A stretch of 64,000 nt of DNA from Candidatus Omnitrophota bacterium (GTDB lineage: Bacteria; Omnitrophota; Gorgyraeia; JAGLLT01), in assembly GCA_030632085.1 (NCBI GenBank), contig DAOVJY010000001.1, positions 2,125 to 66,124 of the forward strand, written 5' to 3'. The notes beneath the pieces were generated by a model. The model did no database searches. It had not been told where the DNA came from and was given only the letters and a program-made list of their open reading frames with translations. Below, piece by piece: positions 3,760 through 25,926 of the stretch (position 1 is the first letter of the stretch; every line of letters starts with the position of its first letter). The position numbers were made by a program, and so were the translations under genes.

Positions 3760-4962
3760 TTACAGGTCCAATAAATGTCCTAATTTTTCTTTTTTTACCT
3801 TTAAATATTTATCATTATATGCAGTTGGTTTTATAACCAACGGAATTCTTTTTGTAATCACAAGGCCGTAACCTTCAAGTCCAACAACCTTTTTAGGGTT
3901 ATTAGTGATTAACTGTATTTTTTTAAGGCCTAAGTCGGCTAAAATTTGCGCGCCGGTACCATAATCTCTCAAGTCCGCTTTAAAACCGAGAGCTTCATTA
4001 GCCTCAACAGTATCTAACCCCTTATCTTGCAGGTGATAAGCTTTAAGCTTGTTAGCTAAACCTATTCCCCTTCCTTCCTGGCGCATGTACAAAAGAACAC
4101 CTTTTTTTCTTTTTTTAATCATATTTAATGACTTTTCCAGCTGCTGCCCGCAATCACATCTTCTCGAAAAAAGCACATCTCCGGTAAGGCATTCCGAGTG
4201 CACCCGCACCAGAACTTCACCGTTTAGTTTCCCCGTAGTCAGGGCAATATGCTCAAAATTATCAATAAGTGCCTTATAAAGATACATTTTAAAATTACCA
4301 AATTTAGTAGGTAGCTTTGTTTGAGTAAGGCGTACTACGAGTTTATCGCGCTTCATCCTGTATTTAATTAAATCTTTAATGGTGCAAATTTTTAATTTAT
4401 GTTTCGCGGCAAACTCTTTGAGTTCGGGCAAGCGGGACATTTCACCATTAGAACTCATAATTTCACATATAACACCGGCTGGGTATAATCCGCCAGCCTT
4501 CATTAAATCGATACAAGCTTCAGTATGCCCGGCTCTAAGTAAAACGCCGCCTTTTTTAGCTTTTAAAGGAAACATATGGCCCGGTTTAATTAAATCCTCA
4601 GGTTTGGTCTTAGGATTAATAAGCGCTTTAATGGTTCTTGCTCGATCAGCCGCCGATATTCCGGTAGTAACATTCTTTTTAGCATCAACAGAAATAGCCC
4701 AATCGGTTCTATAGGCATCCATTTCTCCCTGATGCGAAACATGCCTCATAGGAGGTATTTTCAATTCGTCAAGGCGATTAGCTTCCAAGGGCACGCAAAT
4801 AAGCCCCCTCCCGTAAGTTGCCATGAAATTTATATTATCTTTTGTGGCAAATTCGGCAGCTAAAATAAGGTCACCCTCATTTTCTCGGTCTTCATCATCA
4901 ACCACTATCACCATTTTGCCTTTTTTTAGGTCTTTAATGATATCTTCAATTTTATCTGGCAT
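3760..4962 (-). CDS. ribBA: Bifunctional 3,4-dihydroxy-2-butanone-4-phosphate synthase / GTP cyclohydrolase II
   Basis: 400 aa. DHBP synthase N-half and GTP cyclohydrolase II C-half (CxxC...C zinc motif CDCGQQL). First gene downstream of the FMN riboswitch. Confidence 0.9.
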   Translation of the reverse strand: MPDKIEDIIKDLKKGKMVIVVDDEDRENEGDLILAAEFATKDNINFMATYGRGLICVPLEANRLDELKIPPMRHVSHQGEMDAYRTDWAISVDAKKNVTTGISAADRARTIKALINPKTKPEDLIKPGHMFPLKAKKGGVLLRAGHTEACIDLMKAGGLYPAGVICEIMSSNGEMSRLPELKEFAAKHKLKICTIKDLIKYRMKRDKLVVRLTQTKLPTKFGNFKMYLYKALIDNFEHIALTTGKLNGEVLVRVHSECLTGDVLFSRRCDCGQQLEKSLNMIKKRKKGVLLYMRQEGRGIGLANKLKAYHLQDKGLDTVEANEALGFKADLRDYGTGAQILADLGLKKIQLITNNPKKVVGLEGYGLVITKRIPLVIKPTAYNDKYLKVKKEKLGHLLDL

Positions 4963-10084: not shown

Positions 10085-10113
10085 AATATATCATAATTCC
10101 TCGTATCTGTCAA
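10085..10113 (-). promoter_or_regulatory. Putative sigma70 promoter for smc (TTGACA-17-TATATT)
   Basis: Minus strand: cTTGACAgatacgaggaattatgaTATATTtg, ~50 nt upstream of the smc ATG. Confidence 0.35.
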
Positions 10114-10140: not shown

Positions 10141-10180
10141 AAAAATTGTATTAAAATAGACCACAATATATAGTGGTCTA
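10141..10180 (-). terminator. Rho-independent terminator after etfA
   Basis: Minus strand: tagaccac-tatatatt-gtggtcta hairpin followed by ttttaatacaattttttt. Confidence 0.5.
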
Positions 10181-10223
10181 TTAACACAACATATTGTGGC
10201 TTAAGAGATTAGACTAAATAAAA

Positions 10224-11435
10224 TTATTCGCTGGAGGATTGAATACTCTTTATGAGTGCTGGAATTATTTTAAATAAATCTCCAACAACCCCATAATTAG
10301 CAACTTTAAATATGGGAGCATCGGGGTTTTTATTAATCGCGATAATTACATCCGAAGACTGCATTCCGACTAAATGCTGAATCTGGCCCGATATGCCGCA
10401 AGCAATATATAGTTTAGGGCAAACCGTCCGCCCTGTCTGGCCTACTTGATGAGAGTAAGGAACCCAGCCGGCATCAACTATAGACCTTGAAGCCCCCACC
10501 GCCCCGTTTAACGCTTTCGCGAGTTCCTCAATTAATGTTATGTTTTCCCTGGAACCAATACCTCTTCCCGCGGCAACTATAATATCAGCTTCTGTAATGT
10601 TAACTGTCTCTTCAATTTCCTCAATAATATCCTTAAGAATAATGTCGGTATTTAAAAGTTCGCTTGATACTTTTTCTTCAATTATTTCACCCTTGCGGTT
10701 CTCATCTTCCTTTGCCTCAGCAAAAACTTTATGCCTGACTGTTGCCATTTGCGGCCTATGCTTCTGACACATAATCGTCGCCATAATATTACCGCCAAAG
10801 GCGGGCCTTGTCTGAAGTAATAATTTACTTTTTTTATCAATTTCAAGAGCGGTGCAGTCAGCAGTTAAGCCGGTATTAAGTTTTATTGCCAGGCGCGGAA
10901 CCAGAGACCTGCCAATGGTTGTTGCTCCGGCAAGAATTATTTCAGGTTTATATTTTTTTATAATCTCGGTAATTACCGCTGAATAAGGCCCGCTTTGGTA
11001 ATGATTTAATATTGTATTTTCTACGATTATTACTTTATCAGCTCCTCTATGAATTAAACACTGAGCCTCTTGTTTGACGCTAGACCCTAATAAAACTGCC
11101 GTTAAATCAACCTTCAATTCATCGGCTAATTCTCTGCCTTTATTTAACAGTTCATATGACACCGATTGTACTTTATTATTTTTTTGCTCGGCTAATATCC
11201 AGACACCCATGGCTTCTTTGAGAGACACCGCCGATTCAAAACCGGCCTGTTTTTGCATTTCGATAGCTTCAAATTTACATTTTGATATGCACGCTCCGCA
11301 TAAAGTACATTTATCATAATCTATCTTTACTTTTTTACCTTGCATATAAAGAGCATTATACGGGCAAGCATCCAGGCAAGCCCGGCAACCGACGCATTTA
11401 TCTTCAAGTATCCGGATACTCTTTAAAACTTTCAC
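10224..11435 (-). CDS. etfA: Electron transfer flavoprotein alpha subunit with N-terminal 2x[4Fe-4S] ferredoxin domain
   Basis: N-terminus has CVGCRACLDACP and CTLCGACISKC ferredoxin motifs. The rest is ETF-alpha (FAD-binding C-terminal domain). Confidence 0.85.
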   Translation of the reverse strand: MKVLKSIRILEDKCVGCRACLDACPYNALYMQGKKVKIDYDKCTLCGACISKCKFEAIEMQKQAGFESAVSLKEAMGVWILAEQKNNKVQSVSYELLNKGRELADELKVDLTAVLLGSSVKQEAQCLIHRGADKVIIVENTILNHYQSGPYSAVITEIIKKYKPEIILAGATTIGRSLVPRLAIKLNTGLTADCTALEIDKKSKLLLQTRPAFGGNIMATIMCQKHRPQMATVRHKVFAEAKEDENRKGEIIEEKVSSELLNTDIILKDIIEEIEETVNITEADIIVAAGRGIGSRENITLIEELAKALNGAVGASRSIVDAGWVPYSHQVGQTGRTVCPKLYIACGISGQIQHLVGMQSSDVIIAINKNPDAPIFKVANYGVVGDLFKIIPALIKSIQSSSE

Positions 11436-12214
11436 TTTATCTCCTTGATCACATTTGATAACTTCTCAACAATATCAGATACTTCCCCCGTAAACATCTC
11501 ACCCTTTTCACGGGCCGGTGGTGAGAAAATTTTAACTACCTGCGTAGGTGAACCATCTAATCCTAAATATTCCGATTTAACATCCAGGTCATCGGCTCTT
11601 ATAGTTTTGATTTGGGCCTTTTTAGACCTCATCATACCTTTCAATGAAGGAATTCTGGGCTCATTTATTTCCTTAACAACGCTCATCAAACAAGGAAGCG
11701 AAGCTTCAATAATTTCATAACCTTCTTCTATTAATCTTTCCACTGTTATCTTGCCATTTTCTATATTTTCAACTTTCTTGACATATGTAATTTGCGGTAT
11801 ATTTAAATGAACGGCAATACCGGGGCCAACTTGAGCCGTATCTCCGTCCGCCGCCTGTTTTCCGCAGATAATAATATCAAATTGACCTATGGATTGAATA
11901 CCCTTAGCAAGAGTATAACTTGTAGCCCAGGTGTCACTTCCCGCGAAAGCCCTGTCGGACAAAAGAACGCCATCATCAACTCCCATGGAAATCGCTTCTC
12001 TTAAAATACTTTCAGCTTGAGGCGGGCCCATACTTATAACCGTGACTTTACCTTCATGCTTTTCTTTTATGCGCAGAGCTTCTTCCACAGCGTACATATC
12101 AAACGGATTCATAATAGAGTCCACGCCTTCTCTAATTAAAGTGTTAGTTTCCGGATCAATTCTGACATCCGTTGTATCAGGTACCTGTTTTACGCAGACT
12201 ACAATATTAAGCAA
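11432..12214 (-). CDS. etfB: Electron transfer flavoprotein beta subunit
   Basis: MLNIVVCVKQVPDTTDVRID is canonical EtfB. Overlaps etfA by 4 nt. Confidence 0.85.
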   Translation of the reverse strand: MLNIVVCVKQVPDTTDVRIDPETNTLIREGVDSIMNPFDMYAVEEALRIKEKHEGKVTVISMGPPQAESILREAISMGVDDGVLLSDRAFAGSDTWATSYTLAKGIQSIGQFDIIICGKQAADGDTAQVGPGIAVHLNIPQITYVKKVENIENGKITVERLIEEGYEIIEASLPCLMSVVKEINEPRIPSLKGMMRSKKAQIKTIRADDLDVKSEYLGLDGSPTQVVKIFSPPAREKGEMFTGEVSDIVEKLSNVIKEIK

Positions 12215-12232
12215 AGTACACCTCTTCTTATA

Positions 12233-13387
12233 TTATTTTTTTCGAGATTCTTTAATTAGACTAGCAGCGATAATGCTTCGCTGAATCTGGTTGGTGCCTT
12301 CATATATTTGAGTAATCTTGGCATCTCTCATATATTTCTCTATGGGATAATCTTTCATGTAACCATAACCGCCATATATTTGAATACAATCTACGGTTAC
12401 TTTCATGGCAACATCTGAAGCGTACATTTTACTCATAGCGGAAGCGCCGGCTACATTGTTTTTTTTCGCGTCAATCATTCTGGCGGTTGAATAAACCAAA
12501 GCTCTGGCGGCTTCTATTTCCGTCGCCATATCGGCCAACATAAACTGAATTCCTTGAAAATTTGAAATAGATTTACCGAACTGCTTACGTTCGGTAGCAT
12601 ATTTAACCGTAAGATCTAACGCTCCCTGCGCGATACCTAAGGCTTGAGCCGCGACACCGGGCCTGGACGCATCAAAAGTCCTCATAGTCGCAATAAAACC
12701 CATCCCTTCCTTACCGAGAACATTTTCTGCCGGCACCTTGCAATCATTGAAGACCAATTCGGTAGTAGTCGAAGCTCTTATACCCAATTTATCCTCCTTT
12801 TTACCAAAAGTAAAACCCTTAGTACCCTTCTCGATAATAAATGCTGTTGCCCCTCTGGCGCCTTTAGTTTTATTTGTCGTCGCGATAACGACATAGGTAT
12901 CAGCTACACCACCATTAGTAATAAAGTGCTTCATACCGTTAATAACATAATGATCGCCTTCTTTTTTGGCTGTGGTTTGAATAGCGGAAGCGTCACTTCC
13001 GGCCTCCGGTTCGGTAACCGCGAAGGCGGCAATTTTTTTACCACTGGCTAAATCGGGAATGTATTTCTTTTTCTGTTCTTCATTGCCCATAATAAGAATC
13101 GGAATTGTACCTAAGGCACTAGCCGCGTAGCAAACTGCTATACCACCACACGCCTTAGAAAGCTCTTCAGTGATTAAACAAAGCTCAAAAACTCCTCCGC
13201 CAAAACCTCCATACTTTTCAGGAAGATACACACCAAAAAGGTCGCTATCAGCCAAGGCTTTCATAACTTCATAAGGAAACTCACTTTTTTCATCCAGTTC
13301 CTTAGCAACAGGCCTAATTTTCTCGTCGGCAATCTTACGAGCTAAATCCTGCATCATCTTCTGTTCTTCAGTCAAAAGATAATCCAT
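12233..13387 (-). CDS. Short-chain acyl-CoA dehydrogenase (butyryl-CoA dehydrogenase-like)
   Basis: 384 aa ACAD fold with C-terminal catalytic YEGTNQIQR. Adjacent to etfBA. Confidence 0.85.
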   Translation of the reverse strand: MDYLLTEEQKMMQDLARKIADEKIRPVAKELDEKSEFPYEVMKALADSDLFGVYLPEKYGGFGGGVFELCLITEELSKACGGIAVCYAASALGTIPILIMGNEEQKKKYIPDLASGKKIAAFAVTEPEAGSDASAIQTTAKKEGDHYVINGMKHFITNGGVADTYVVIATTNKTKGARGATAFIIEKGTKGFTFGKKEDKLGIRASTTTELVFNDCKVPAENVLGKEGMGFIATMRTFDASRPGVAAQALGIAQGALDLTVKYATERKQFGKSISNFQGIQFMLADMATEIEAARALVYSTARMIDAKKNNVAGASAMSKMYASDVAMKVTVDCIQIYGGYGYMKDYPIEKYMRDAKITQIYEGTNQIQRSIIAASLIKESRKK

Positions 13388-13396
13388 AATTTTCTC

Positions 13397-14644
13397 CTAA
13401 CTTTCATTAAATTTCTTTATAGCGATAGTCGCGTTGTGTCCGCCAAAGCCCAAACTATTACTGAGAGCTATACTAAAATCAACTTTTCTAGCTTCATTGG
13501 GAACATAATCAAGATCGCAATCCGGATCCGGTACACTATAGTTAATTGTTGGAGGAATGATTCCTTCTTTTAAGGCTAGAGCCGTCGCGGATGCTTCAAT
13601 GGCTCCCGCGGCGCCCAACATATGACCGGTCATAGATTTAGTTGAACTTACCATCAATTTCTTAGCGTGTTCTTTAAAGGCTAGCTTAATGGCCTTAGAT
13701 TCTATTTTATCGTTTAAACGAGTTGAGGTTCCATGCGCGTTGATATAATCTACTTTATCAGGAGATATACCGGCATCTTCAAGAGCCAACTCCATTGAAC
13801 GAACAGCGCCTCTTGCTCCAGGATCGGGCGCGGTCATATGATATGCATCGCATGTGGCCCCATATCCCACAATTTCAGCTACTATATCAGCATTCCTTGC
13901 TAAAGCATGTTCTAATGATTCTAAAATAATAATTGCCGCCCCTTCAGCCATAATAAACCCATCTCTTTCTTTGTCAAAAGGACGGCTGGCATGTTCGGGG
14001 TCATCATTTCTTGTGGAAAGAGCTCTAGCGGAACAAAATCCTGCAAGGCCTAAAGGCGTTATCGCGTTTTCGCTGCCGCCAACAACCATCACATCAGCTT
14101 TTGAGTTTTGAATAATACGATAAGCTTCACCTATACCATGATTACTTGAAGCACAAGCGGTCACCACCGCAAGATTAGGGCCTTTTAAGTTATAATTTAT
14201 AGCTATCTGGCCCGATGCCATATTTATAATAAGCATCGGAATAAGAAAAGGAGATATCCTTTTAGGGCCTTTCTCAAGAAGAATTTTATGTTGCTCTTCA
14301 ATGGTTATAAGGCCGCCGATACCCGAAGACACTATACAGCCCATTCTCTCGGGATTTTCATTCTGTAAATCTAATTTGGCATCTTTAATAGCTTCATCGG
14401 CGGCTACAAGCGCGTACTGAACAAAACCATCCATGCGCCTGGCTTCCTTGGAATTAATCAAATGAGATGCGTCAAAATTCTTTACCTCACCAGCTATTTT
14501 ACTGGTATGTTCTGAAACATCAAACTTTGTATTCGGTCCAATTCCACCCTTACCGCCAATAAGCGATGACCAAAAATCTGATTTTGAATTACCTATAGGT
14601 GATATTATACCTATACCGGTAATAACAACTCTTTTAGTATTCAT
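13397..14644 (-). CDS. fabF: 3-oxoacyl-ACP synthase II
   Basis: KAS II with active-site Cys (AVVTACASS) and His/His motifs. Confidence 0.9.
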   Translation of the reverse strand: MNTKRVVITGIGIISPIGNSKSDFWSSLIGGKGGIGPNTKFDVSEHTSKIAGEVKNFDASHLINSKEARRMDGFVQYALVAADEAIKDAKLDLQNENPERMGCIVSSGIGGLITIEEQHKILLEKGPKRISPFLIPMLIINMASGQIAINYNLKGPNLAVVTACASSNHGIGEAYRIIQNSKADVMVVGGSENAITPLGLAGFCSARALSTRNDDPEHASRPFDKERDGFIMAEGAAIIILESLEHALARNADIVAEIVGYGATCDAYHMTAPDPGARGAVRSMELALEDAGISPDKVDYINAHGTSTRLNDKIESKAIKLAFKEHAKKLMVSSTKSMTGHMLGAAGAIEASATALALKEGIIPPTINYSVPDPDCDLDYVPNEARKVDFSIALSNSLGFGGHNATIAIKKFNES

Positions 14645-14667
14645 TAGTTTTAATTAAAATAAACTAT

Positions 14668-14904
14668 TCACTTTTTAGCTTTTTCTTCAATATATTTAAT
14701 GGCCAAATCAACCGTAGTCATCTTTTCCGCGTCTTCATCCGGAATCTCAATTCCAAATTCATCCTCCAAGGCCATTACTAATTCAACTGTATCAAGCGAA
14801 TCCGCGCCTAAGTCATCTATGAAAGAAGACTGAGTTGTAACTTCCTCTTTTTTAACGCCTAATTGCTCCGCGATTATAGATATAACCTTTCCTTCTGTGG
14901 ACAT
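14668..14904 (-). CDS. acpP: Acyl carrier protein
   Basis: 78 aa with an [16 protein letters not shown] phosphopantetheine-attachment motif. Confidence 0.9.
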
Positions 14905-15037
14905 TTCAATGTCCTCCTTTCTTAATGATCCGCCTTAGGCGGAGAATTAATCCCGCACTCATTCAAAGTTTTTATTTGCGGGATAAGTTCAGACATAGAA
15001 CTTGGTCTCGCTTTGCTCGCCTAAGTTCTATCTTTAC

Positions 15038-15778
15038 TTACATAAGCATTCCGCCATCCACCTGAATAACCTGGCCGGTTATATATCTGGATTGCGGTGA
15101 ACATAAAAATAGAACTAAATTTGCAATATCTTCCGTGGTGCCCAACTCACCTAAAGGTATCATTTTAAGCATAGCTTCTTTTACCGAATCACTTAACTCA
15201 TCCGTCATTTTTGTTTTTATATATCCGGGGGCAATAGCATTAGCCCTGACGCCTTTAGATCCAAGCTCTTTGGCTACTGTTTTAGTAAGAGCAATTAATC
15301 CCGCCTTAGAAGCGGCATAATTAGCCTGGCCGGGATTACCCATCAAGCCAATTATTGAAGCTATACTTATAATCACCCCGCCTCTTTGTTTTAACATGGG
15401 CCTGGAAACAGCTTTAATCAGGTTAAATGCCCCTTTTAGATTTATAGCCAAGACGCTATCCCAGTCTTTTTCTTCCATGCGAAGGAGTAATTTATCACGG
15501 GTAATTCCGGCATTATTGATAAGTATATCTATCTTTTGAAATTTGTCAAGGACATTGTTGATAAATTCCGTAACTTGTTGAGATGATGATACATCAACTA
15601 CAACAATCATAACTTCAACGCCTAATTTAGCAATATCCTTTTGAGCATTTTTAAGCTCATCCCGGTCGATATCACAAATTACTATCTTTGAACCTTCGCG
15701 GGCCAGTTTTAAGGCGATTTCCTTACCTATGCCTCTGGCAGCCCCTGTAATAACTGAAACTTTATCCTTTAATATCAT
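15038..15778 (-). CDS. fabG: 3-oxoacyl-ACP reductase
   Basis: SDR with TGAARGIG glycine-rich motif and YAASKAG catalytic motif. Confidence 0.9.
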   Translation of the reverse strand: MILKDKVSVITGAARGIGKEIALKLAREGSKIVICDIDRDELKNAQKDIAKLGVEVMIVVVDVSSSQQVTEFINNVLDKFQKIDILINNAGITRDKLLLRMEEKDWDSVLAINLKGAFNLIKAVSRPMLKQRGGVIISIASIIGLMGNPGQANYAASKAGLIALTKTVAKELGSKGVRANAIAPGYIKTKMTDELSDSVKEAMLKMIPLGELGTTEDIANLVLFLCSPQSRYITGQVIQVDGGMLM

Positions 15779-16704
15779 GTCTTTAATTCCTTTTTTACCT
15801 TTTCGATATCTTCTGATGAGCCAATATTATGAACTGTAAGTTCCGGATTTATCCGCTTTAACAACCCCTTCAAAACCCGCCCGGGCCCAATCTCAAAAAA
15901 TACAGTTACACCATTAGCTACCATACATTCCACGGATTTCTGCCAGTATGTTATTTGGCTGACCTGTTTAAAAAGATTAGTTTTAATACTTTCAGGATTA
16001 TCCTCTGTTTCTCCGGTTACATTAAAAACAATTTCACAGACAGGTTCTTTAATATTTATATCTTCCAGTTCATTCTTAAGCTTTAAACTAGCCTCCCGCA
16101 TAAGAACTGTATGAAAAGGGCCGCCCACCTTCAAAAGAAGGACTCTCTTAGCTCCCTTTTTTTTAGCTAAAACTTCAGCATCTTTTAAATTATTATGTTT
16201 CCCGGAGATTACAATTTGACCGGGACAATTTAAATTAGCTATATATGTCTGTGTTTCGCGGACGATTTCATTAATTTTTTCTAAATCTAAACCAAGTATT
16301 GTTAACATACTTCCCGGATTAGCAGCTGAGGCTTCCTGCATAAACTTACCGCGCTTAGCCACCAAGTTTATAGCATCCACAAAATCTATGCTGCCCGCGG
16401 CTGCCAAAGCACTGTATTCCCCCAAACTAAGGCCCGCTACATAGTCCGGCGTTACATCTAAACCGGATGAGCGCATAGCCGTTAAAGCCGCGATGCTGGC
16501 CGTCAATATAGCCGGTTGAGAAATGTTTGTTAAAGATAACTCCTCAAGAGGGCCGTGAAAACAAACTTTATTAATATCAAAATCAACTATAGCTTGCGCT
16601 TTATCAAAAATATCTTTAGAGGCGGGTATATTATTATATAAGCTTTCGGACATACCCACAAATTGAGCTCCCTGTCCCGGAAAAATAAAAGCCTTTTTTA
16701 CCAT
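15775..16704 (-). CDS. fabD: Malonyl-CoA:ACP transacylase
   Basis: GQGAQ and GLSLGEYSAL active-site serine motif. Confidence 0.9.
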   Translation of the reverse strand: MVKKAFIFPGQGAQFVGMSESLYNNIPASKDIFDKAQAIVDFDINKVCFHGPLEELSLTNISQPAILTASIAALTAMRSSGLDVTPDYVAGLSLGEYSALAAAGSIDFVDAINLVAKRGKFMQEASAANPGSMLTILGLDLEKINEIVRETQTYIANLNCPGQIVISGKHNNLKDAEVLAKKKGAKRVLLLKVGGPFHTVLMREASLKLKNELEDINIKEPVCEIVFNVTGETEDNPESIKTNLFKQVSQITYWQKSVECMVANGVTVFFEIGPGRVLKGLLKRINPELTVHNIGSSEDIEKVKKELKT

Positions 16705-17687
16705 CTGATAACAGCTCCTCCCCAGGTAAGGCCTCCGCCAAAAGTGGAAAGAACTACAATATCATCAGATTTAATAACCTTTTTTAACACCGCTTCATTA
16801 AGAGCCGTTACGGTTGATGCCGCTGACATATTGCCATATTTCTCTAAATTGATAAAAACTTTTTTATCTTCCAGGTTAAGGCGCTTACCAACCGCCTTTA
16901 TAATTCTTATATTTGCTTGATGCGGGACTAACATATCAATATCATCAGTAGTCATCTTACATAATTTTAAAGCTTCGTGAGCGCAATCAACCATCTTCTT
17001 AACAGCTATCTTAAAAAGCTCACTACCGCGCATTTTAATATACTGCATGCGTTCATCGATAATCCTGTAGGAGGCGGGATTCAAAGAACCTCCTCCCGGT
17101 ACATATAACAAGTCAGCTTTCCTGCCATCACTTCCCAAGTAAACTGATAATACGCCTTTATTGGAATTAGTTGGCCTTAAAATGCAAGCTCCGGCGCCAT
17201 CTCCAAATAAAACACAAGTGTTCCTGTCCTTCCAATCAGTTATCGAAGAGAGTTTATCGGCTGCTATTACCAAAATCGTCTTGTATTGAGCTGACTTTAT
17301 AAGAGCTTGAGAAACGCAAAGCGCGTACGGAAAACCGGCACACGCGGCGGATAAATCCATACAAGCGGCATTACTTGCCTTAATTCTTTGCTGAACAAAA
17401 CAGGCCGTTGAGGGAAAATTCATATCCGGAGTTACAGTTACCACTATTATTAAATCTATTTCGGAGGGGAGTATTTGAGCGTTTTTCATTGCTTCTTTAG
17501 CCGCCTTAGCCGCCATATGAGAAGTCGCTTCACCCGGAGCCGCTATTCTACGCTCTTTAACACCTGTTCTGGTTATAATCCATTCATCAGATGTATCAAC
17601 CATCTGCTCAAGGTCATGATTAGTAAGGATTTTTTCGGGGTAATAATTCCCTACTCCTATAATCTTTGCCCGTATTTCTTTATTCAT
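16698..17687 (-). CDS. fabH: 3-oxoacyl-ACP synthase III
   Basis: KAS III with Cys (ACAGF) and His-Asn catalytic residues. Sits between plsX and fabD as in the canonical cluster. Confidence 0.9.
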   Translation of the reverse strand: MNKEIRAKIIGVGNYYPEKILTNHDLEQMVDTSDEWIITRTGVKERRIAAPGEATSHMAAKAAKEAMKNAQILPSEIDLIIVVTVTPDMNFPSTACFVQQRIKASNAACMDLSAACAGFPYALCVSQALIKSAQYKTILVIAADKLSSITDWKDRNTCVLFGDGAGACILRPTNSNKGVLSVYLGSDGRKADLLYVPGGGSLNPASYRIIDERMQYIKMRGSELFKIAVKKMVDCAHEALKLCKMTTDDIDMLVPHQANIRIIKAVGKRLNLEDKKVFINLEKYGNMSAASTVTALNEAVLKKVIKSDDIVVLSTFGGGLTWGGAVIRW

Positions 17688-17745
17688 AATCCCCTTTTAA
17701 TCAACTTATACCCTTATATGGCACAAGCAAGATACAAACAATATT

Positions 17746-17798
17746 CAATCCTTCGATACTGCTCAGGATTGACCCTGAGTAAATTGAAGGGTCAAATA
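17746..17798. repeat. Nested palindromic element B, copy 1 (caatccttcgatactgctcaggattgaccctgagtaaattgaagggtcaaata)
   Basis: Near-identical copies at 45316-45367 and, inverted, at 54433-54485. Contains nested inverted repeats (ccttcRat/attgaagg, ctcagg/cctgag, ttgaccc/gggtcaa). Confidence 0.7.
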
Positions 17799-17802
17799 AC
17801 CA

Positions 17803-17915
17803 TACAAGAATAGCGACTTATGACTTATGACTTTGCACTTGCGTTTTGCATCTTGTCTTTTGTTTTTGTTTTTTTGCTTTTCATTTCTTGTGGCTTATGA
17901 CTTGTGTCTTGTGAC
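17803..17915. repeat. Degenerate CT/GT-rich tandem tract (cttatgacttatgact...cttgtgtcttgtgacttg)
   Basis: Member of a tract family also at 2876-3090, 3668-3758, 36091-36168, 36528-36810, 41575-41652 and 54320-54550. Confidence 0.7.
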
Positions 17916-17943
17916 TTGTTTTTTATACGTTAAACGCTATTTT

Positions 17944-18939
17944 TCAGCTGTGATTATTTTTTATTGAATCAATAATATGTTGATTTATATCATGTATTAC
18001 AGCTTCCGCGGCCACCCTGATGCCATTCTTTATAGCCTTAGCGGAAGAACGGCCGTGCCCTACAATGCAAATACCATCTATGCCTAAAAGCGGCGCGCCT
18101 CCATGTTCGGCGTAATCCACTTTTCTTTTTAACTTTTTAAAAGCCGGCATACTTAAAAGGCCGCCAATCATCGTAAGTAAGTTGCTGCTTAATTGCTGCT
18201 TAAATAAGCCGGCTACAGTTTCAGCTACGCTTTCTAAGACTTTTAAAATAATATTGCCGGTAAATCCGTCGCAAACAATTACATCCGCCTTGCCCGAAAA
18301 TATATCGCGGCCCTCAACATTGCCTACAAAGTTTAAATTGCTGTTACTCAATAAATCATGAGCCAATTTAATAAGTTCATTGCCTTTAGACTTCTCCTCA
18401 CCAATGCTAAGCAAACCTACTTTTACCTCTTTTTTTGCCAAAACATAACGGCAATAAACACTGCCCATAACGGCATATTGAAACATATGTTCCGGCTTGC
18501 AATCAACATTAGCTCCCACATCAATCAATAATGAATTATTGAGAAGCGTTGGCAAGACAACGCTGATCCCGGGCCTATCTATAGCCTCGAGAGTCCTCAG
18601 CTTTAGAGCCGCGCTGCAAACAACGGCCCCTGTATTTCCGGCGGTAAATAACGCGTCCGCCTTTTTTTCTTTTACAAGGTTAACAGCTACATTAATTGAA
18701 GAGTCCTTCTTCTTTCTGATAGTAGCTGCCGGTGATTCATCCATGCCTATAATTTCAGAGGCATGCTTAATAGATATCGTAGAAGGCACTTTCTTATGCC
18801 GAGAAAGCTCTTTTTCAATAGAATACTGTTCCCCTACAAGTATAATTTCATATCCATATTCAGAAGCTGCTAAAATTGAACCGTCTATAGCATTGTGCGG
18901 CGCGAAATCACCACCCATAGCATCTACCGCTATTATCAT
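17944..18939 (-). CDS. plsX: Phosphate:acyl-ACP acyltransferase
   Basis: 331 aa, PlsX family. Conserved rpmF-plsX-fabH context. Confidence 0.9.
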   Translation of the reverse strand: MIIAVDAMGGDFAPHNAIDGSILAASEYGYEIILVGEQYSIEKELSRHKKVPSTISIKHASEIIGMDESPAATIRKKKDSSINVAVNLVKEKKADALFTAGNTGAVVCSAALKLRTLEAIDRPGISVVLPTLLNNSLLIDVGANVDCKPEHMFQYAVMGSVYCRYVLAKKEVKVGLLSIGEEKSKGNELIKLAHDLLSNSNLNFVGNVEGRDIFSGKADVIVCDGFTGNIILKVLESVAETVAGLFKQQLSSNLLTMIGGLLSMPAFKKLKRKVDYAEHGGAPLLGIDGICIVGHGRSSAKAIKNGIRVAAEAVIHDINQHIIDSIKNNHS

Positions 18940-18949
18940 ACGCTTACCT

Positions 18950-19156
18950 TTAGCTTTCTTTCTTTGATTCTTTTTTCTTTTCTTTTATCTCAATCACTTG
19001 CTTGCCTCTATAATATCCGCAATAAGGACAAACCGCGTGCGGCTTTTTCATTCTACCGCAATGCTTACATTTGCTGAGACTGCAAACGCTTAATTTTTTA
19101 TGTGTCTTCTTTTTATCTCTTCTCGCCTTGGAAATCTTTCTTTTTGGTAACGCCAT
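18950..19156 (-). CDS. rpmF: 50S ribosomal protein L32
   Basis: MALPKRKISKARRDKKKTHKKL N-terminus and CxxC...CxxC zinc ribbon. Lys/Glu-rich C-terminal tail. Confidence 0.85.
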   Translation of the reverse strand: MALPKRKISKARRDKKKTHKKLSVCSLSKCKHCGRMKKPHAVCPYCGYYRGKQVIEIKEKKKESKKES

Positions 19157-19342: not shown

Positions 19343-20497
19343 TTACTTCTTTTTAATAATGTTGCGGGTATCTTGCGCGATCATTAATTCTTCATCAGTT
19401 GGTATTACAAGCACTTTTAACGCCGGTTTGATAAAATTATTAAGCCCTTCAACAACTTTATTTCTTATAAAAGCGCAGTTCTCACCGATACCCCCGGTAA
19501 AAATCAGAGCATCCGCCCCGCCCAAAGCGACAATATAAGCTCCAACGTATTTCCTGACTCTATATATAAATAGATCAAGGGCAATTCCCGCCTTCTTATT
19601 TTTCTTTTTCGCCGCGGCTTCGATGTCTCTCATATCACTACTCAACTCCGAAAGGCCCAGTAAGCCGCTCTTCTTATTTAAAATGTTGTCCATCTCACTC
19701 GGGGTAAGATTGTCTACTTTCATAAGATACATGAGAATCGCGGGATCTAAGTCACCGCTTCTTGTACCCATCAACAATCCTTCAAGCGGCGTAAGGCCCA
19801 TAGATGTATCAATGCATTTACCATTCTTAACAGCGGATATACTGCAGCCGTTACCCAGGTGACATGTTATAATTTTTAAATCTTTGCGCGGCTTCTTTAA
19901 TAATCTAGTTGCTTTCATGGAAACATATCTATGGCTTGTACCGTGAAATCCATACCTCCTTATACCGCGTTTCGCGTAATATTTGTACGGAATCCCATAT
20001 AAATAAGCGTGAGCGGGCATTGTCTGCCCAAAGGCGGTATCAAAAACGGCAACCTGTGAAATATTTTTTAATTCCTTCTCACAGGCGATTATACCCTGAA
20101 GATTTACGGGATTATGCAAAGGGCCAAATTTTATATATTCCCTAATAATTTTTTTTACGGTTTTATTTATAATACACGGTTGGGTAAACTTTTCCCCTCC
20201 GTGAAGCACTCTATGGCCTACGGCATCTATCTCATTTCGCGATTTTAAAACCCTATATGTGTCGTGCTCGGCTAAATAAGATACAAGTATCTTTATAGCG
20301 GATTGATGATCCGGCGCCTTCACTTTTTTCTTATTAATGCTTGGTTTATTTACCGGATAATGACTAAAAAGCTGGGTCGCCTGCCCAATTTTTTCAATTA
20401 ATCCTTTGGCCATTATTTTATAAACCAAGCCGCCCTTAACGTCATACAGCCTATATTTAACCGATGAGCTTCCACAGTTTACAACAAGAATCTTCAT
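19343..20497 (-). CDS. ackA: Acetate kinase
   Basis: MKILVVNCGSSSVKYRLYD ASKHA N-terminus; ~385 aa. Confidence 0.9.
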   Translation of the reverse strand: MKILVVNCGSSSVKYRLYDVKGGLVYKIMAKGLIEKIGQATQLFSHYPVNKPSINKKKVKAPDHQSAIKILVSYLAEHDTYRVLKSRNEIDAVGHRVLHGGEKFTQPCIINKTVKKIIREYIKFGPLHNPVNLQGIIACEKELKNISQVAVFDTAFGQTMPAHAYLYGIPYKYYAKRGIRRYGFHGTSHRYVSMKATRLLKKPRKDLKIITCHLGNGCSISAVKNGKCIDTSMGLTPLEGLLMGTRSGDLDPAILMYLMKVDNLTPSEMDNILNKKSGLLGLSELSSDMRDIEAAAKKKNKKAGIALDLFIYRVRKYVGAYIVALGGADALIFTGGIGENCAFIRNKVVEGLNNFIKPALKVLVIPTDEELMIAQDTRNIIKKK

Positions 20498-20511: not shown

Positions 20512-21504
20512 TTATTGATTTCTAATAGCTGTTATAGCTACAGCATCTATTACAGCTTGAACATTGCACCCTCGCGATAAATCACTGCAGGACTTTTTTA
20601 AGCCCTGAAGCAAGGGGCCTATCGCCTTAGCTTTTGAAAGCCTTTGAACGAGCTTATAAGATATATTCCCGGATTCAAGCCCGGGAAAAATCAAAACATT
20701 AGCCTTACCCTTAAGGCAACTGTCAGGTGATTTCTTTTGAGCTACCTCGGGAATAATAGCCGCGTCTACCTGTATTTCTCCATCGAGAATTAACTTTGGA
20801 CGCATTTTTTTGGCAATCTCAACCGCTCTGCGAACCTTATCCACAGGAGCACCTTTGGCGCTTCCTTTAGTGGAATAACTTAAAAAAGCTACCCTGGGAT
20901 CAATACTAAATACTTTTTGGAGCAGTTGGGCGCTGGATATCGCAATCGCGGCTAGTTGTTCTGAAGTAGGCTCCGGTACAATCCCGCAATCAGCAAAGAC
21001 AAAAACTCCATCCTCACCCAAATTACAATCAGGCACTGCCATAATAAAAGAGCTTGAAAGAGTCTTGATTTCATCATCAACTCCAATACAATGCAATGCC
21101 GCTCGAGCTACATTTGCGGATGTAGTTACAGCTCCGGCAACAAACCCGTCCGCCCCGCCTTGCGCCACCAGCATCGCGGAATAAAAAAGAGGATCTTTCA
21201 TAACTTCTCTGGCATCCTCTAAAGTAATCCCTCTATGCTTTCTGTTTTCAAAATAAGAAGCGGCAAACTCTTCAAAATTCGCCGCTTTTTCATTATCTAT
21301 TATTTCAACCTTATCCAAACTTACGGAACAGTCTTTAGCCGCCTTAATAACCTCTTCCTTTATGCCAATCAATACAGGGGCAGCCAAATTTTCCTGAGTT
21401 ATCTTCGCAACCGCCTCAATGATTCTTTTATCATACGACTCCGGTAAAACGATCCTTTTGAGATTAGATTTTGCGTTTGCGTAGATACTATCTAATATAT
21501 TCAT
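20512..21504 (-). CDS. pta: Phosphate acetyltransferase (short form; acetyl/butyryl specificity unresolved)
   Basis: 330-aa PTA_PTB family protein immediately downstream of ackA. Confidence 0.8.
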   Translation of the reverse strand: MNILDSIYANAKSNLKRIVLPESYDKRIIEAVAKITQENLAAPVLIGIKEEVIKAAKDCSVSLDKVEIIDNEKAANFEEFAASYFENRKHRGITLEDAREVMKDPLFYSAMLVAQGGADGFVAGAVTTSANVARAALHCIGVDDEIKTLSSSFIMAVPDCNLGEDGVFVFADCGIVPEPTSEQLAAIAISSAQLLQKVFSIDPRVAFLSYSTKGSAKGAPVDKVRRAVEIAKKMRPKLILDGEIQVDAAIIPEVAQKKSPDSCLKGKANVLIFPGLESGNISYKLVQRLSKAKAIGPLLQGLKKSCSDLSRGCNVQAVIDAVAITAIRNQ

Positions 21505-22007: not shown

Positions 22008-22569
22008 TTACGCTTGTTTTTTAAAAAAAGTTACAGATGTTTTGCCGGCTTCAATTTGCTTAAGCTTTATATACTCTATTATATCTAAATCCTTGAGAGC
22101 ATTTTTCTCATATTCAGCTATAATCAAGCCATCGGGCAGCAGTATATCATAGTCCAAAAGTAGATGCAAGCTTTTTTTTATCAAGCCTTTACGATAAGGA
22201 GGGTCTAAAAATATTAAATCAAATTTGAGCTCTTTTTTTTTTCGCCTTTTTGATGAATTCCAGGGCATCCCGCTTTAAAATTTGAGCCTTAGAAGCGTCA
22301 TTTTTGTCAAAAATTCGTACATTTTCAAGCAAGCTGGATATATCAATGTCAACCATATAGGCCTTCTTGGCTCCCCTGGAAATAGCTTCTATGCCAAAAG
22401 CACCGCTGCCGGAATACAAATCAAGCACCAGAGCACCCTCAATTTTTGCCATCAATAGATTAAAAAGACATTCCCGCAGACTATCCTTTGTGGGGCTCAC
22501 TACGCTTGATAAAACTTTCAGCTTCCTTCTACTATATTTACCACCTATTATTCTCATAAAAAAACTCAA
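22008..22569 (-). pseudogene. rsmD: 16S rRNA (guanine966-N2)-methyltransferase RsmD, split by a frameshift in a homopolymer
   Basis: ORF 22219-22569 encodes the N-terminal half (MRIIGGKYSRRKL...DLYSGSGAFGIEAISRGA). ORF 22008-22268 encodes the C-terminal half with the FDLIFLDPPY motif, in another frame. The junction lies in a run of 10 T (plus strand 22233-22242; A10 on the coding strand). Confidence 0.6.
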
Positions 22570-22951: not shown

Positions 22952-25267
22952 TCACCTCACTTTTTTTCGCATAGGTATGACAATCCTTTTACCTGGTTCT
23001 AAATAATAATCCTTCTCTTCATGCCTTAATTTGACTTGCTTACAGTGATTAACTCTACTAAATAAACGCGAAGATACCTCTATCTGCTTTTTATTTATCC
23101 TGAAATTTAAAACAAAATTCCTGTACCTAAATTTAAATTGTAACAATTTCCAGTGACTCGGCAAATTGGGCCTTAATTGAATGCCTAATTCATCAATCAC
23201 GATACCGCCAAAGCCCCTTATAACAACTTGGTATGTTCCCCCCAAAGAAGCTCCATGGACGCCATCGCCGGTATTACCGTGTTTATTTTGAATATCACTT
23301 AAAACAGAATATATAAAGTAAACATATGCCCTTAAATCATCCTCTATCCAGGATGCCACCGTGGCATGAACACTGGGGCTCAAAGAAGATTTGTGCAAAG
23401 TCCTCTCAACATAATAATAGTAATTCCTTTTAGTCTGTTCATGGGTAAAATTCTGCGGGAATAAAAAGAACAACATAACTACATCGGCCTGCTTCACAAA
23501 TTGAGTAGCTCCGATATTCTTTAAAGGTACCGCCTTGGGCGTGGCCGGAATAAAATCTCTTTCCCATTCGGATATAGTTATCGACTTTTTCTTAAAATAA
23601 CCGTCGAATTGTTCAATTAATTTATTCTTTTTTGAAAATTCAAAATAAATCTTCTGGCCGATTTTAAACCATGAGGCTACTTCTTTATCGGTTACCCCTA
23701 ATTTTTTCTTAATTCTTTTGAATCTGGCTTTGGCCTTTTTTCCATAGTAATCATTTAAAGCCACCGCGTACAATAAATTCCACTTAGCCATATAATTGGT
23801 AAAAGCGTTATTATTAACATTTATATGGAACTCATCAGGGCCAATGACTCCATTTATATCATATCTATCTTTGGCCTTATTATATGTAACTCTACTCGCG
23901 TAAAATCGGGCCGATTCAAAAACCATCTCTATGCCATATCTTAAAAGAAAATTTTCATCATTGGTGTGCAGGACATAATTGTAAATACTATAGGCGATAT
24001 CAGCCGAGATATGCTGTTCATAATCCTGGGTATGGATTTCAATAATCGTCCCGTCCAGATCCTTTGAATAACCGGGAGTTGTCTCAATTCCGGTAGCAGC
24101 AGACTCCCAGGGGAAAAGCGCCCCTTTGTAATTAAATTTCAGAGCTCTCCGGCGGGCATTATCAAGCCGGCGGTATCGATACAATAATAACTTCCTGCTG
24201 ACTTCAGGATTAGTCATATTAAAAAAAGGCATAATGAATATTTCAGTATCCCAGAATACATGCCCTCTATAACCTTCGCCGGAAAGTGTCTTGGCGGCAA
24301 CGCTGACATCTTTACTCCAACGCCCGGCCGCGATCAACAAATGATAAATGTTAAACCGTACCGCTTTTTGAATATCCTTATCACCCTGAATTACTACATC
24401 TGATTCTTTCCACAGTTGAGTCCAGACATTTTTATGCTCCCTTAAAAGCTTTTCAAATCCGCTTTTATAGGCATCTTTTACTTCCCGAGAAGAAACGGCC
24501 CTAATTTTTTTTCGGCTGATATGCCTTGAGGTATGAACTGTTATGTACTTAGTTAAAGTAACGCTGGCGCCCTTCTTTAAGAATAAGTTTTGAACTCTGC
24601 TATTAGCCAATTTCCGCTTTTGGCCGGACTTCATTGATAAAAGTGTCGAATACGCGATCCAGGTTTTATATGTATAACTACGCATGCATAGATAATTTAA
24701 TTTTGTTTCGCCATCAGCTTCAACAACTTTCACATGCCTCTTTCGCCCTTCCAATATCCCTCCCTGATTAGCTACCGAATCATCAATGCAATCCTGGATA
24801 ATCAGGTGCATAGGCGCGTTTACAGCCGTCAACTTAACCCTCATTATAATTAAATGGTGATTAGCATAACTTATAAACCTGGTCGATTCATAATTAATCT
24901 TTCTACCCCAGGCATCTTTATATAACGTATTTCTGTATAAGAGGCCGTTTTTCATATCTAAACAACGGCTATGCTTTAAAACCTTCATACTCCTGACATC
25001 TAATTTTTCACCTTCTGAAGCAATTCTCATATCCAATGGGTTAGGGAGATTAATTAACTCCTCAACCTGGGCAACACTCTTATCGAAAACTCCAGCTATA
25101 AAAGTCCCCGGAGTATAACCCTCAGGCGATTCTTCAAAAATTCCCCTAATTCCCATATAACTATTACCCAAGGTGAAAATAGACTCATAAGCTCTTTGGG
25201 TATCCGGGTTAAAATCATGCATTTTTTCTTCAATTATCCAGTCATTGCCGGAAAGTAACTTTTTCAT
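22952..25267 (-). CDS. Glycoside hydrolase family 65 disaccharide phosphorylase (maltose/kojibiose/trehalose phosphorylase-like)
   Basis: 771 aa with GH65 N-terminal beta-sandwich and central (alpha/alpha)6 catalytic domain. Adjacent beta-phosphoglucomutase is the classic partner. Confidence 0.8.
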   Translation of the reverse strand: MKKLLSGNDWIIEEKMHDFNPDTQRAYESIFTLGNSYMGIRGIFEESPEGYTPGTFIAGVFDKSVAQVEELINLPNPLDMRIASEGEKLDVRSMKVLKHSRCLDMKNGLLYRNTLYKDAWGRKINYESTRFISYANHHLIIMRVKLTAVNAPMHLIIQDCIDDSVANQGGILEGRKRHVKVVEADGETKLNYLCMRSYTYKTWIAYSTLLSMKSGQKRKLANSRVQNLFLKKGASVTLTKYITVHTSRHISRKKIRAVSSREVKDAYKSGFEKLLREHKNVWTQLWKESDVVIQGDKDIQKAVRFNIYHLLIAAGRWSKDVSVAAKTLSGEGYRGHVFWDTEIFIMPFFNMTNPEVSRKLLLYRYRRLDNARRRALKFNYKGALFPWESAATGIETTPGYSKDLDGTIIEIHTQDYEQHISADIAYSIYNYVLHTNDENFLLRYGIEMVFESARFYASRVTYNKAKDRYDINGVIGPDEFHINVNNNAFTNYMAKWNLLYAVALNDYYGKKAKARFKRIKKKLGVTDKEVASWFKIGQKIYFEFSKKNKLIEQFDGYFKKKSITISEWERDFIPATPKAVPLKNIGATQFVKQADVVMLFFLFPQNFTHEQTKRNYYYYVERTLHKSSLSPSVHATVASWIEDDLRAYVYFIYSVLSDIQNKHGNTGDGVHGASLGGTYQVVIRGFGGIVIDELGIQLRPNLPSHWKLLQFKFRYRNFVLNFRINKKQIEVSSRLFSRVNHCKQVKLRHEEKDYYLEPGKRIVIPMRKKVR

Positions 25268-25926
25268 ATATTTTTTTTGATTTTCTCCTCTATTAGAGCG
25301 ATATCAAGCTTACTGAAATCATTAATAACAATATCCGCGCCGCGCAAAATCTCAGGTTTATCAACCCGATCAACCCCCACGCACACCATGTTTCCGTTTT
25401 TAGCCGCTTCAACGCCTTTCTTGGCATCTTCAAAGACCACAGCATTTAAAGGATTGACATTTATCATTTTGGCCGCGTTTAAAAATATCTCCGGGTCCGG
25501 TTTTCCATTCTTAAATCCGTATCCGTCAATCACAGCATCAAATATTTTAAATATACCTATCTTATTTAGAATATCTTTGCAGTTTTTACTTGAAGAAGCT
25601 ACGGCAAGCATAAATTTGCCCTTCTCCAGGGAATCAATAAATTTAATTGCATCTTCATAAACATCAACATTATCATTAGTTAGAAGTTCTACAAAATAGT
25701 TTTGTTTTTTCTTTGCCGCCGCCTTTAATTCCTCATCTGTTAAATCTGTTAATATGGCTCCGGCCCCATCCAATCTGGGAATACCGTCAACCCTTTCTTT
25801 ATACATTTCAAACGTAAAATCAATACCATAACCGGCAAACATTTTTTTCCAGGCCTTGAAATGCAAAGGAACCGTATTGGTTATAACACCGTCCATATCA
25901 AAGATTAATCCAATTTTTGAACTCAT
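25264..25926 (-). CDS. pgmB: Beta-phosphoglucomutase (HAD superfamily)
   Basis: GLIFDMDGVITNT HAD motif I. 220 aa. Overlaps the GH65 gene by 4 nt. Confidence 0.8.
   Translation of the reverse strand: MSSKIGLIFDMDGVITNTVPLHFKAWKKMFAGYGIDFTFEMYKERVDGIPRLDGAGAILTDLTDEELKAAAKKKQNYFVELLTNDNVDVYEDAIKFIDSLEKGKFMLAVASSSKNCKDILNKIGIFKIFDAVIDGYGFKNGKPDPEIFLNAAKMINVNPLNAVVFEDAKKGVEAAKNGNMVCVGVDRVDKPEILRGADIVINDFSKLDIALIEEKIKKNI

Follow-up and report, generated by a model that had tools for sequence, protein, structure and literature searches.

A bifurcating-type acyl-CoA dehydrogenase/Etf gene trio behind the fab operon of Omnitrophota: a candidate enoyl-ACP reductase

The 64-kb stretch of DNA analysed here (hereafter the window), from a Candidatus Omnitrophota bacterium, carries on its minus strand ten genes arranged head to tail (positions 10224-19156) in the order rpmF-plsX-fabH-fabD-fabG-acpP-fabF, followed by a gene for a protein of the acyl-CoA dehydrogenase family (ACAD), the electron transfer flavoprotein (Etf) genes etfB and etfA and a strong hairpin (Table 1). 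ACAD, etfB and etfA are collectively referred to as the trio. The first seven genes follow, on one strand, the order known from E. coli, and all seven products score above the curated NCBIfam cut-offs, so that the canonical cluster recognized in the preliminary description of this locus is correct in both content and coordinates. The same applies to the placement of the flavoprotein trio after fabF, to the two ferredoxin motifs of EtfA, supported by coordinates and Pfam domains, and to the position of ackA and pta immediately upstream. Within the cluster, plsX and fabH are separated by 256 nt. It had also been noted that FabI, FabK, FabL, FabV and FabZ are not encoded locally, and inspection of open reading frames (ORFs), together with tblastn using FabI and FabZ of E. 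coli, yielded no candidate for any of these in the window. This local absence is normal, because the corresponding cluster of E. coli is not known to contain fabI or fabZ either; the unusual part is the ACAD-etfBA extension.

Table 1. Features of the fab-ACAD-etfBA region and its upstream neighbours in the window (SDR, short-chain dehydrogenase/reductase; ACP, acyl carrier protein).
Feature	Coordinates	Strand	Evidence
rpmF (ribosomal protein L32), first cluster gene	18950..19156	-	TIGR01031 69.4 bits vs cut-off 22.6; Pfam Ribosomal_L32p
plsX (phosphate acyltransferase)	17944..18939	-	TIGR00182 366.9 bits vs cut-off 243.4
fabH (ketoacyl-ACP synthase III)	16698..17687	-	TIGR00747 431.9 bits vs cut-off 292.1
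fabD (malonyl-CoA:ACP transacylase)	15775..16704	-	TIGR00128 321.7 bits vs cut-off 260.9
fabG (3-oxoacyl-ACP reductase)	15038..15778	-	TIGR01830 339.6 bits vs cut-off 297.75; sole SDR in window (tblastn)
acpP (acyl carrier protein)	14668..14904	-	TIGR00517 113.2 bits vs cut-off 70.45
fabF (ketoacyl-ACP synthase II)	13397..14644	-	TIGR03150 649.9 bits vs cut-off 493.75
fabF/ACAD junction, 9 nt	13388..13396	-	direct sequence reading
Bcd-like ACAD flavoenzyme, 384 aa	12233..13387	-	all three Pfam ACAD domains (N/M/C)
etfB, small Etf subunit, bifurcating type	11432..12214	-	Pfam ETF domain
etfA, large Etf subunit with N-terminal ferredoxin domain	10224..11435	-	Pfam Fer4 x2 + ETF + ETF_alpha
etfA ferredoxin domain	~11226-11435	-	two complete CxxCxxCxxxC motifs in first ~70 residues
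Intrinsic-terminator-like hairpin and U run	~10145..10190	-	RNA fold -21.1 kcal/mol
ackA	19343-20497	-	immediately upstream of fab cluster
pta	20512-21504	-	immediately upstream of fab cluster

The stop codon of fabF (13397-13399) and the ATG of the ACAD gene (13385-13387) are 9 nt apart; the closeness of the two genes thus stands, whereas the spacing of 10 nt given previously was one too many. Six nucleotides before the ACAD start is a GGAG (13394-13397), whose first base is also the final base of the fabF stop codon. Of the 4-nt overlaps attributed to the trio, that between etfB and etfA is real, whereas ACAD and etfB are separated by a short gap of 18 nt. The consensus scan reported no terminator-like site at the fabF/ACAD junction, and the spacer itself holds neither a terminator nor a promoter. 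By contrast, the terminator proposed after etfA is well supported: it was missed by the simple consensus scan but found by RNA folding (z = -4.11), and none of 200 shuffled sequences was equally stable. This hairpin is the first convincing terminator after fabF, and the transcription unit evidently ends here; beyond it, at 10085-10113, smc has a promoter-like site of its own. Given the 9-nt gap, the ribosome-binding site placed over the stop codon, the lack of a terminator at the junction and the hairpin only after etfA, fabF and ACAD-etfBA are very likely to share one transcript in the window, as judged from the sequence. A sigma-70-like site is present inside fabF (13950-13977, minus strand; TTGACA-16-TATTAT, 11/12), ~560 nt upstream of the ACAD start, and could be an internal promoter of the trio, although in this AT-rich DNA such sites occur near the chance level (41 matches versus 32.6 +/- 6.2 expected).

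To place the trio in a broader context, we collected ~160 loci, namely, 80 from species-representative genomes (ACAD identity of 70-95%), nearly all of which are labelled Candidatus Omnitrophota, and 80 from metagenome contigs. All ORFs of the genome loci were clustered, and the metagenome loci were screened by tblastn. The closest PDB matches of the window ACAD are the butyryl-CoA dehydrogenases (Bcd) of Clostridioides difficile (5ol2_C, 419.6 bits) and Acidaminococcus fermentans (4l1f, 417.7 bits), both aligned over the full length with high identity (over half of the positions, by eye), whereas the score against CarC of the caffeyl-CoA reductase is clearly lower (6fah_C, 344.9 bits). The catalytic Glu (IYEGT) is present and is kept in 79 of the 80 Omnitrophota orthologues. 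Comparison with the residues through which C. difficile Bcd docks domain II of Etf (PMC5691135) shows that F155, E198, E210, Y341 (=Y340), D346 (=D345) and Y347 (=Y346) are retained in the window protein, with Met replacing T343. The protein does not belong to the MbtN subfamily, scoring 112.1 bits against the NCBIfam acyl-ACP dehydrogenase model with a cut-off of 700. ACAD is the most conserved enzyme of the region, with a median identity to the window orthologue of 75%, compared to 66% for EtfB, 57% for EtfA, 61% for FabF, 58% for FabG, 59% for PlsX and 50% for FabD in the same loci; Pta and AckA are also less conserved, and only AcpP (79%) is comparable. Such conservation is unusual for an accessory catabolic enzyme.

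By every sequence test run, the trio appears to be of the bifurcating type. The preliminary description had proposed checking EtfB for the second-FAD (bifurcating group 2) signature. This signature is indeed present in the window as GKQAADGDTAQVGP, and the same motif occurs in the aligned CarD and C. difficile EtfB sequences as well as in all 72 Omnitrophota EtfB orthologues. Around this segment, DGDTAQVG(P), bifurcating EtfB binds a second FAD instead of AMP, and canonical ETFs differ there; the signature reportedly goes back to work of Garcia Costas and colleagues in 2017 and of Chowdhury and colleagues in 2014. The five top PDB matches of EtfB are all bifurcating or confurcating (CarD 6fah_B, the best at 269.4 bits, followed by 5ol2_B, 7qh2_B, 4kpu_B and 7koe_A; range 219-269 bits), whereas canonical ETFs reach at most 116 bits. 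EtfA aligns with CarE (6fah_A, 403.5 bits) over its full length, residues 6-398, including the ferredoxin domain, and the top structural relatives of both subunits come from the same five bifurcating or confurcating entries (6fah, 5ol2, 4kpu, 7koe and 7qh2). Both Cys motifs of EtfA are found in all 59 full-length Omnitrophota orthologues. Furthermore, R210 of EtfA aligns, in the TRPAFGGN segment, with R136 of 5ol2_A, which in C. difficile contacts N5 of the bifurcating beta-FAD (PMC5691135). The top NCBIfam models are those of AcrABC, with scores under the equivalog cut-offs in each case (AcrC, 467.6 versus 640; AcrB, 263.2 versus 475; AcrA, 359.6 versus 600). Since all three proteins fall short of every equivalog cut-off in NCBIfam, the trio is best classified, at the level of sequence models, as an unnamed subfamily within the Bcd/Car/Acr group.

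If the trio serves fatty acid synthesis, the question is whether the genome encodes another enoyl-ACP reductase. In the window and the collected loci, probes for FabI and FabZ of E. coli matched only fabG, a weak negative given that the probe sequences were unverified and that the DNA covered was ~2 Mb from a single neighbourhood. The window is part of ENA ERZ23498525 scaffold_2 (368 kb), read in reverse, and its flanks on that scaffold (+10 kb and +6 kb, 16 kb in total) contain no reductase candidate. Evidence on the scale of whole genomes comes from the source-data tables published by Seymour et al. in 2023 (PMC10066038), in the portions available for three Omnitrophota metagenome-assembled genomes (MAGs): MAG 58 (DG02-5-26, 93.9% complete), MAG 231 (92.7%) and MAG 221 (94.6%), the KEGG Orthology (KO) list of the latter being partial. 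In these portions, fabD (K00645), fabG (K00059) and fabZ (K02372) are listed for all three MAGs, and fabF (K09458) and etfB/etfA (K03521/K03522) are in the full KO lists of MAGs 58 and 231, whereas fabI (K00208), fabK (K02371) and fabV (K00209) appear in none of the three lists and fabL (K10780) is absent from the two full ones (PMC10066038). Among the listed Pfam entries of MAG 58, the ACAD, ETF and FabA domains are included, and PF03060 (NMO, FabK), PF12242/PF07055 (FabV), PF00107 (MDR) and PF00724 (OYE) are not (PMC10066038). The same tables list ferredoxin-dependent oxidoreductases (por/kor KOs; PMC10066038). As far as these tables go, it is unlikely that three MAGs of ~93-95% completeness all lack the same step by an accident of assembly.

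The search for a pathway that would supply the trio with a CoA substrate gave a similarly negative outcome. No thiolase, crotonase, 3-hydroxyacyl-CoA dehydrogenase, CoA-transferase, CoA-ligase or 2-hydroxyacyl-CoA dehydratase gene was identified adjoining the trio in the ~160 loci, in which most of the flanking gene families were assigned by eye, and no carA/carB-type CoA-transferase or ligase gene was identified beside the trio in any locus. ORF inspection of the whole window likewise identified no thiolase, 3-hydroxybutyryl-CoA dehydrogenase or crotonase. In the available KO lists, thiolase (K00626/K00632) and hbd (K00074) are found for none of the three MAGs, and crotonase (K01715/K01692) is absent from the full lists of MAGs 58 and 231 (PMC10066038). 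The listed Pfam entries of MAG 58 lack PF00378 (ECH), PF00108/PF02803 (thiolase), PF02737/PF00725 (3HCDH), PF06050, PF01144 and PF02515; those of MAG 231 include the C-terminal ACAD domain but neither PF00108 nor PF00378 (PMC10066038). Because neither the 80 clustered nor the 80 tblastn-screened loci yielded partner genes for butyrate or beta-oxidation metabolism near the trio, the earlier suggestion that such metabolism is co-regulated here with lipid synthesis was dropped.

The association of the three trio genes with each other is far more widespread than their association with fab genes. etfB-etfA follow ACAD in 105 of the 108 loci with enough downstream sequence, with smc usually next, as part of the housekeeping neighbourhood smc-recA-alaS. 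There is considerable variation upstream, as assessed in the 126 loci with at least 1.4 kb of upstream sequence. fabF directly precedes ACAD in eight of these, with gaps of 10-424 nt, and a partial fabF is found at the contig edge in two more. In six loci, fab genes are located 4-8 kb upstream, five of them sharing the order fabD-fabG-acpP-fabF-leuCDB-asd-truA-marC-glgC-GNAT-ACAD and the sixth (L081) having different intervening genes. The predominant arrangement (101 loci) places glgC-GNAT directly upstream, usually after gap-pgk-tpiA-secG, and in 43 of these at least 9 kb of flank are devoid of fabF; the remaining 11 loci show other arrangements. In the neighbour-joining tree of ACAD, the fabF-adjacent loci, including the window, form one deep clade, in which fabF is directly upstream in all members with upstream sequence except for L081 (~4 kb away). 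Within relatives, the fabF-ACAD synteny spans divergence down to 72% identity in ACAD, 61% in FabF and 48-52% in Pta. Conservation of the fabF-ACAD-etfBA order, which the preliminary description had proposed to check in relatives, is thus seen in the clade of the window but not in most of the phylum.

Several observations concern the variation of these loci. In one lineage (L052, 11173-15049; L055; L146), ~4 kb are inserted between ACAD and etfB, showing that the trio is not always one tight operon. The inserted genes were considered as lipid or CoA partners and rejected, as they encode LemA, an M48-like peptidase, a methyltransferase and small secreted proteins. The ackA-pta context of the fab cluster is kept in L002, L054 and L073, as judged by tblastn synteny. 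In L054 (5456-7418), L073 (5081-7059) and L145, plsX is directly followed by fabD, without the intervening fabH that is present in the window and in L002/L003; the same three loci have a YceD/DUF177-like gene, lacking in the window, between ackA and plsX, where it precedes a short rpmF missed by tblastn. The trio is also found in many MAGs labelled 'uncultured Planctomycetales/Planctomycetia' (L003, L007, L011, L021, L025, L029 and others) and in single MAGs labelled 'Deltaproteobacteria' (L080) and 'Auribacterota' (L078). All of these share the Omnitrophota neighbourhood glgC-GNAT-ACAD-etfBA-smc, except for L078, in which ACAD is at the contig edge, and the taxonomic labels under which these records were submitted are probably erroneous or mere placeholders.

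Overall, the trio is phylum-wide and under strong constraint, it lies directly behind fabF in one deep clade, and no pathway supplying a CoA substrate is visible. The cell clearly makes acyl chains, with FabD, FabG, FabZ, FabF, AcpP and PlsX present or listed and FabH encoded in the window, and therefore makes trans-2-enoyl-ACP. As the simplest account, we propose non-orthologous displacement, with the ACAD/Etf complex reducing enoyl-ACP. We tentatively favour the view that the putative complex of ACAD, EtfB and ferredoxin-fused EtfA is the enoyl-ACP reductase of the phylum and possibly also reduces ferredoxin. The more far-reaching version, in which all known enoyl-ACP reductases have been replaced by a bifurcating three-subunit complex, so that each elongation cycle feeds the ferredoxin pool, is a possibility that we advance with reserve. 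The preliminary description had considered a flavin-based, possibly bifurcating enoyl-thioester reductase for type II fatty acid synthesis (FAS II); the hallmarks of the bifurcating type, the lack of identified CoA partner genes nearby and the absence of fabI, fabK, fabV, thiolase and hbd from the three MAG tables (and of fabL and crotonase from the two full ones) lend indirect support to this putative role.

In the proposed mechanism, the three genes behind fabF would encode a single complex, in which electrons from NADH would enter at the EtfB flavin and pass through the EtfA flavin to the flavin of ACAD, which would then reduce a trans-2-enoyl thioester. By analogy with Bcd/EtfAB and CarCDE, one electron per cycle would probably leave through the Fe-S domain to ferredoxin; two NADH would be oxidized per enoyl group, with the low-potential electrons taking the ferredoxin route. 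The physiological substrate in Omnitrophota would be the enoyl-ACP made by FabZ, rather than a CoA thioester, and the complex would take the place of FabI, FabK, FabL and FabV in FAS II, this genome presumably encoding no other reductase. In the lineage of the window, the trio would have become joined to the fab operon.

A number of points weigh against an enoyl-ACP reductase. From end to end, the ACAD sequence closely resembles those of true butyryl-CoA dehydrogenases, and we found no feature of it that points to ACP rather than CoA use. A reductase of fatty acid synthesis must accept substrates from C4 to C16-18, and the pockets of Bcd-type enzymes are typically short. The pocket positions corresponding to Q95/E99 of medium-chain acyl-CoA dehydrogenase, compared by eye, seemingly hold small residues in Bcd too and presumably do not discriminate. 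The absence of a standard reductase rests on a small, second-hand sample, namely, the available tables of three other MAGs, and a divergent FabI/FabL-like SDR would escape KO assignment. Direct linkage to fab genes is limited to one clade, with glgC-GNAT upstream elsewhere, and the adjacency could therefore be one inherited rearrangement. Moreover, the fabF-ACAD gap measures 30-420 nt in other members of that clade, and co-transcription is accordingly not necessarily conserved within it. We also found no paper that proposes an Etf/ACAD-type enoyl-ACP reductase or discusses the trio in Omnitrophota; this leaves the proposal without precedent but is no evidence against it.

The main alternative is that the trio is a conventional bifurcating reductase of enoyl-CoA, comparable to Bcd/EtfAB, CarCDE or acryloyl-CoA reductase, and serves fermentative redox balance or energy conservation. 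The proximity of fab genes would then be due to chance, both sets residing in a stable housekeeping region upstream of smc, and FAS would use another, unrecognized reductase. We regard this explanation as doubtful but as one to be taken seriously. It accommodates the full-length similarity of ACAD to the two Bcds (417-420 bits), the best matches of the Etf subunits to CarD and CarE, the AcrABC models at the top of the NCBIfam results and the nearby fermentation genes ackA and pta, as well as the constant position of the trio before smc while its upstream neighbours change, the lack of fab linkage in most of the phylum and the lack of a detectable ACP-specific feature. By contrast, it fits poorly with the ~160 loci, in which no gene for making or activating an enoyl-CoA was found beside the trio, with the missing Pfam families in the available lists of MAG 58 (PF00108, PF00378, PF02737, PF00725, PF06050, PF01144 and PF02515) and MAG 231 (PF00108 and PF00378), and with the failure of the proteins to reach any NCBIfam equivalog cut-off; furthermore, it leaves the missing FAS reductase unexplained.

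The complex might also run oxidatively, or in the confurcating direction, on acyl thioesters, dehydrogenating either scavenged or host-derived acyl chains or acyl-ACP for unsaturated fatty acid synthesis, which we consider improbable. ACADs are dehydrogenases in most organisms, and the adjacency to fab genes fits an ACP-linked role. Many Omnitrophota are described as host-dependent or predatory (PMC10066038), and FabX of H. pylori, although unrelated, provides a precedent for a flavin/Fe-S acyl-ACP dehydrogenase within FAS (PMC8626469). However, both Etf subunits are of the NADH-binding bifurcating type, and the characterized ACAD-linked Etfs of this type all run towards enoyl reduction (PMC5691135, PMC6085437). 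In addition, the available MAG tables list no hydratase, dehydrogenase or thiolase that would continue beta-oxidation, and FabZ, which is listed, makes enoyl-ACP anyway. An oxidative role also does not solve the problem of the missing reductase. Least probable, and only a slim prospect in our view, is an enoyl-ACP reductase without bifurcation (NADH to Etf to ACAD to enoyl-ACP), with the Fe-S domain serving another purpose, such as accepting electrons from reduced ferredoxin: a canonical, non-bifurcating Etf is reported to couple to Bcd in Fusobacterium nucleatum (PMC12630350), and the role of the CarE-type ferredoxin domain is here only predicted, but the second-FAD motif of EtfB and the flavin-contacting Arg of EtfA are both conserved throughout the phylum.

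The components of the system are of known kinds, namely, a bifurcating Etf, a Bcd-like ACAD and a CarE-type ferredoxin domain. What appears to be undescribed is the joining of the trio to a fab operon, its phylum-wide occurrence without beta-oxidation partners and the apparent lack of a known enoyl-ACP reductase; full-text searches found no paper linking these three observations. The FAS II cycle is thought to end with one of four reductase families, which are antibiotic targets. The folds of the trio are those of ACAD and ETF only, with no FabI-signature SDR, NMO/FMN or FabV domains, and the trio, if it is an enoyl-ACP reductase, would therefore be a new family of such enzymes. A flavin/Fe-S, Etf-dependent enzyme would then be a fifth, unrelated kind of enoyl-ACP reductase and a new solution to an essential step, as well as the first link of flavin-based electron bifurcation to an anabolic core pathway. 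If bifurcating, the complex would take in two NADH and yield one acyl-ACP together with reduced ferredoxin, and lipid synthesis would feed the ferredoxin pool. There is also a practical implication: module scoring that finds no fabI, fabK, fabL or fabV calls elongation incomplete, which can be misread as lipid auxotrophy in those Omnitrophota that have small genomes and may depend on a host. Should a normal reductase exist elsewhere in the genome, the finding would reduce to a conserved orphan Bcd/Etf complex.

The window contains other features unrelated to the trio. An FMN riboswitch (RF00050; 5061-5184, minus strand; 95.1 bits versus the gathering score of 66.2) is located upstream of ribBA (3760-4962), which is followed on the same strand by ribH, nusB, ribD and ribE, and represents an ordinary rib operon leader. 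At ten consecutive A residues (~22232-22241), an rsmD-like methyltransferase gene (22008-22569, minus strand) breaks into two overlapping ORFs of 116 aa and 86 aa. The orthologous gene forms one ORF of ~183 aa in L002, L054 and L073, and the break reflects either a genuine frameshift or an assembly error in the homopolymer. The region 28907-33628 (minus strand) includes a partial tandem duplication, judged by eye from the translations: the pseudopilin-like N-terminus encoded by the 740-aa ORF (30136-32358) recurs in the 144-aa ORF (33194-33628), and the 108-aa ORF (32626-32952) is similar to the C-terminus encoded by the 414-aa ORF (28907-30151). Finally, at 22952-25926 (minus strand), a gene for a glycoside phosphorylase of the GH65 type (771 aa) precedes those for a HAD protein resembling beta-phosphoglucomutase (220 aa) and for a glycosyltransferase; identified by eye, these suggest a module for phosphorolysis of maltose, trehalose or kojibiose.

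Among characterized systems, Bcd/EtfAB (C. difficile, 5OL2; A. fermentans, 4L1F/4KPU) shares with the trio the full-length ACAD similarity (417-420 bits), the catalytic Glu, the docking residues, the second-FAD motif of EtfB and the Arg of EtfA at the beta-FAD. In contrast to Bcd/EtfAB, EtfA of the window has an additional N-terminal 2x[4Fe-4S] domain, the trio lies behind fabF in the fab operon, and no thiolase, hbd or crotonase is found near it or among the entries listed in the Omnitrophota MAG tables. The caffeyl-CoA reductase CarCDE of Acetobacterium woodii (6FAH) resembles the trio in its three subunits and in the ferredoxin domain on the large Etf subunit, and CarE (403.5 bits) and CarD (269.4 bits) are the best PDB matches of EtfA and EtfB, respectively; its reductase subunit CarC, by contrast, matches the window ACAD with 344.9 bits, less than the 419.6 bits of Bcd, and no carA/carB-type genes were identified beside the trio. 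LctBCD, the lactate dehydrogenase/EtfAB complex of A. woodii (7QH2), likewise includes a bifurcating-type Etf (279 and 241 bits), and its LctC subunit also has an N-terminal Fe-S domain, but the partner is a GlcD-type lactate dehydrogenase rather than an ACAD, and the complex works in the confurcating direction. A precedent for ACAD folds acting on thioesters bound to carrier proteins is offered by MbtN and the prolyl-peptidyl carrier protein dehydrogenases 4irn and 6af6, which belong to the same superfamily. These are, however, distant (112 bits against the MbtN model with its cut-off of 700; 231 bits for 4irn versus 420 for Bcd) and function as oxidative tailoring enzymes of secondary metabolism that are not encoded with bifurcating-type Etf genes. 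The reaction proposed here, reduction of trans-2-enoyl-ACP to close the FAS II cycle, is that of FabI and FabL (SDR), FabK (FMN, NMO family) and FabV. In many Firmicutes, fabK or fabI is found inside the fab operon, and the trio of the window, too, occupies such a position. Unlike these reductases, the trio has the unrelated fold of ACADs; its three subunits are predicted from their sequences to bind three FADs and two Fe-S clusters, and the complex would receive its electrons via Etf rather than directly from NAD(P)H and could co-reduce ferredoxin.

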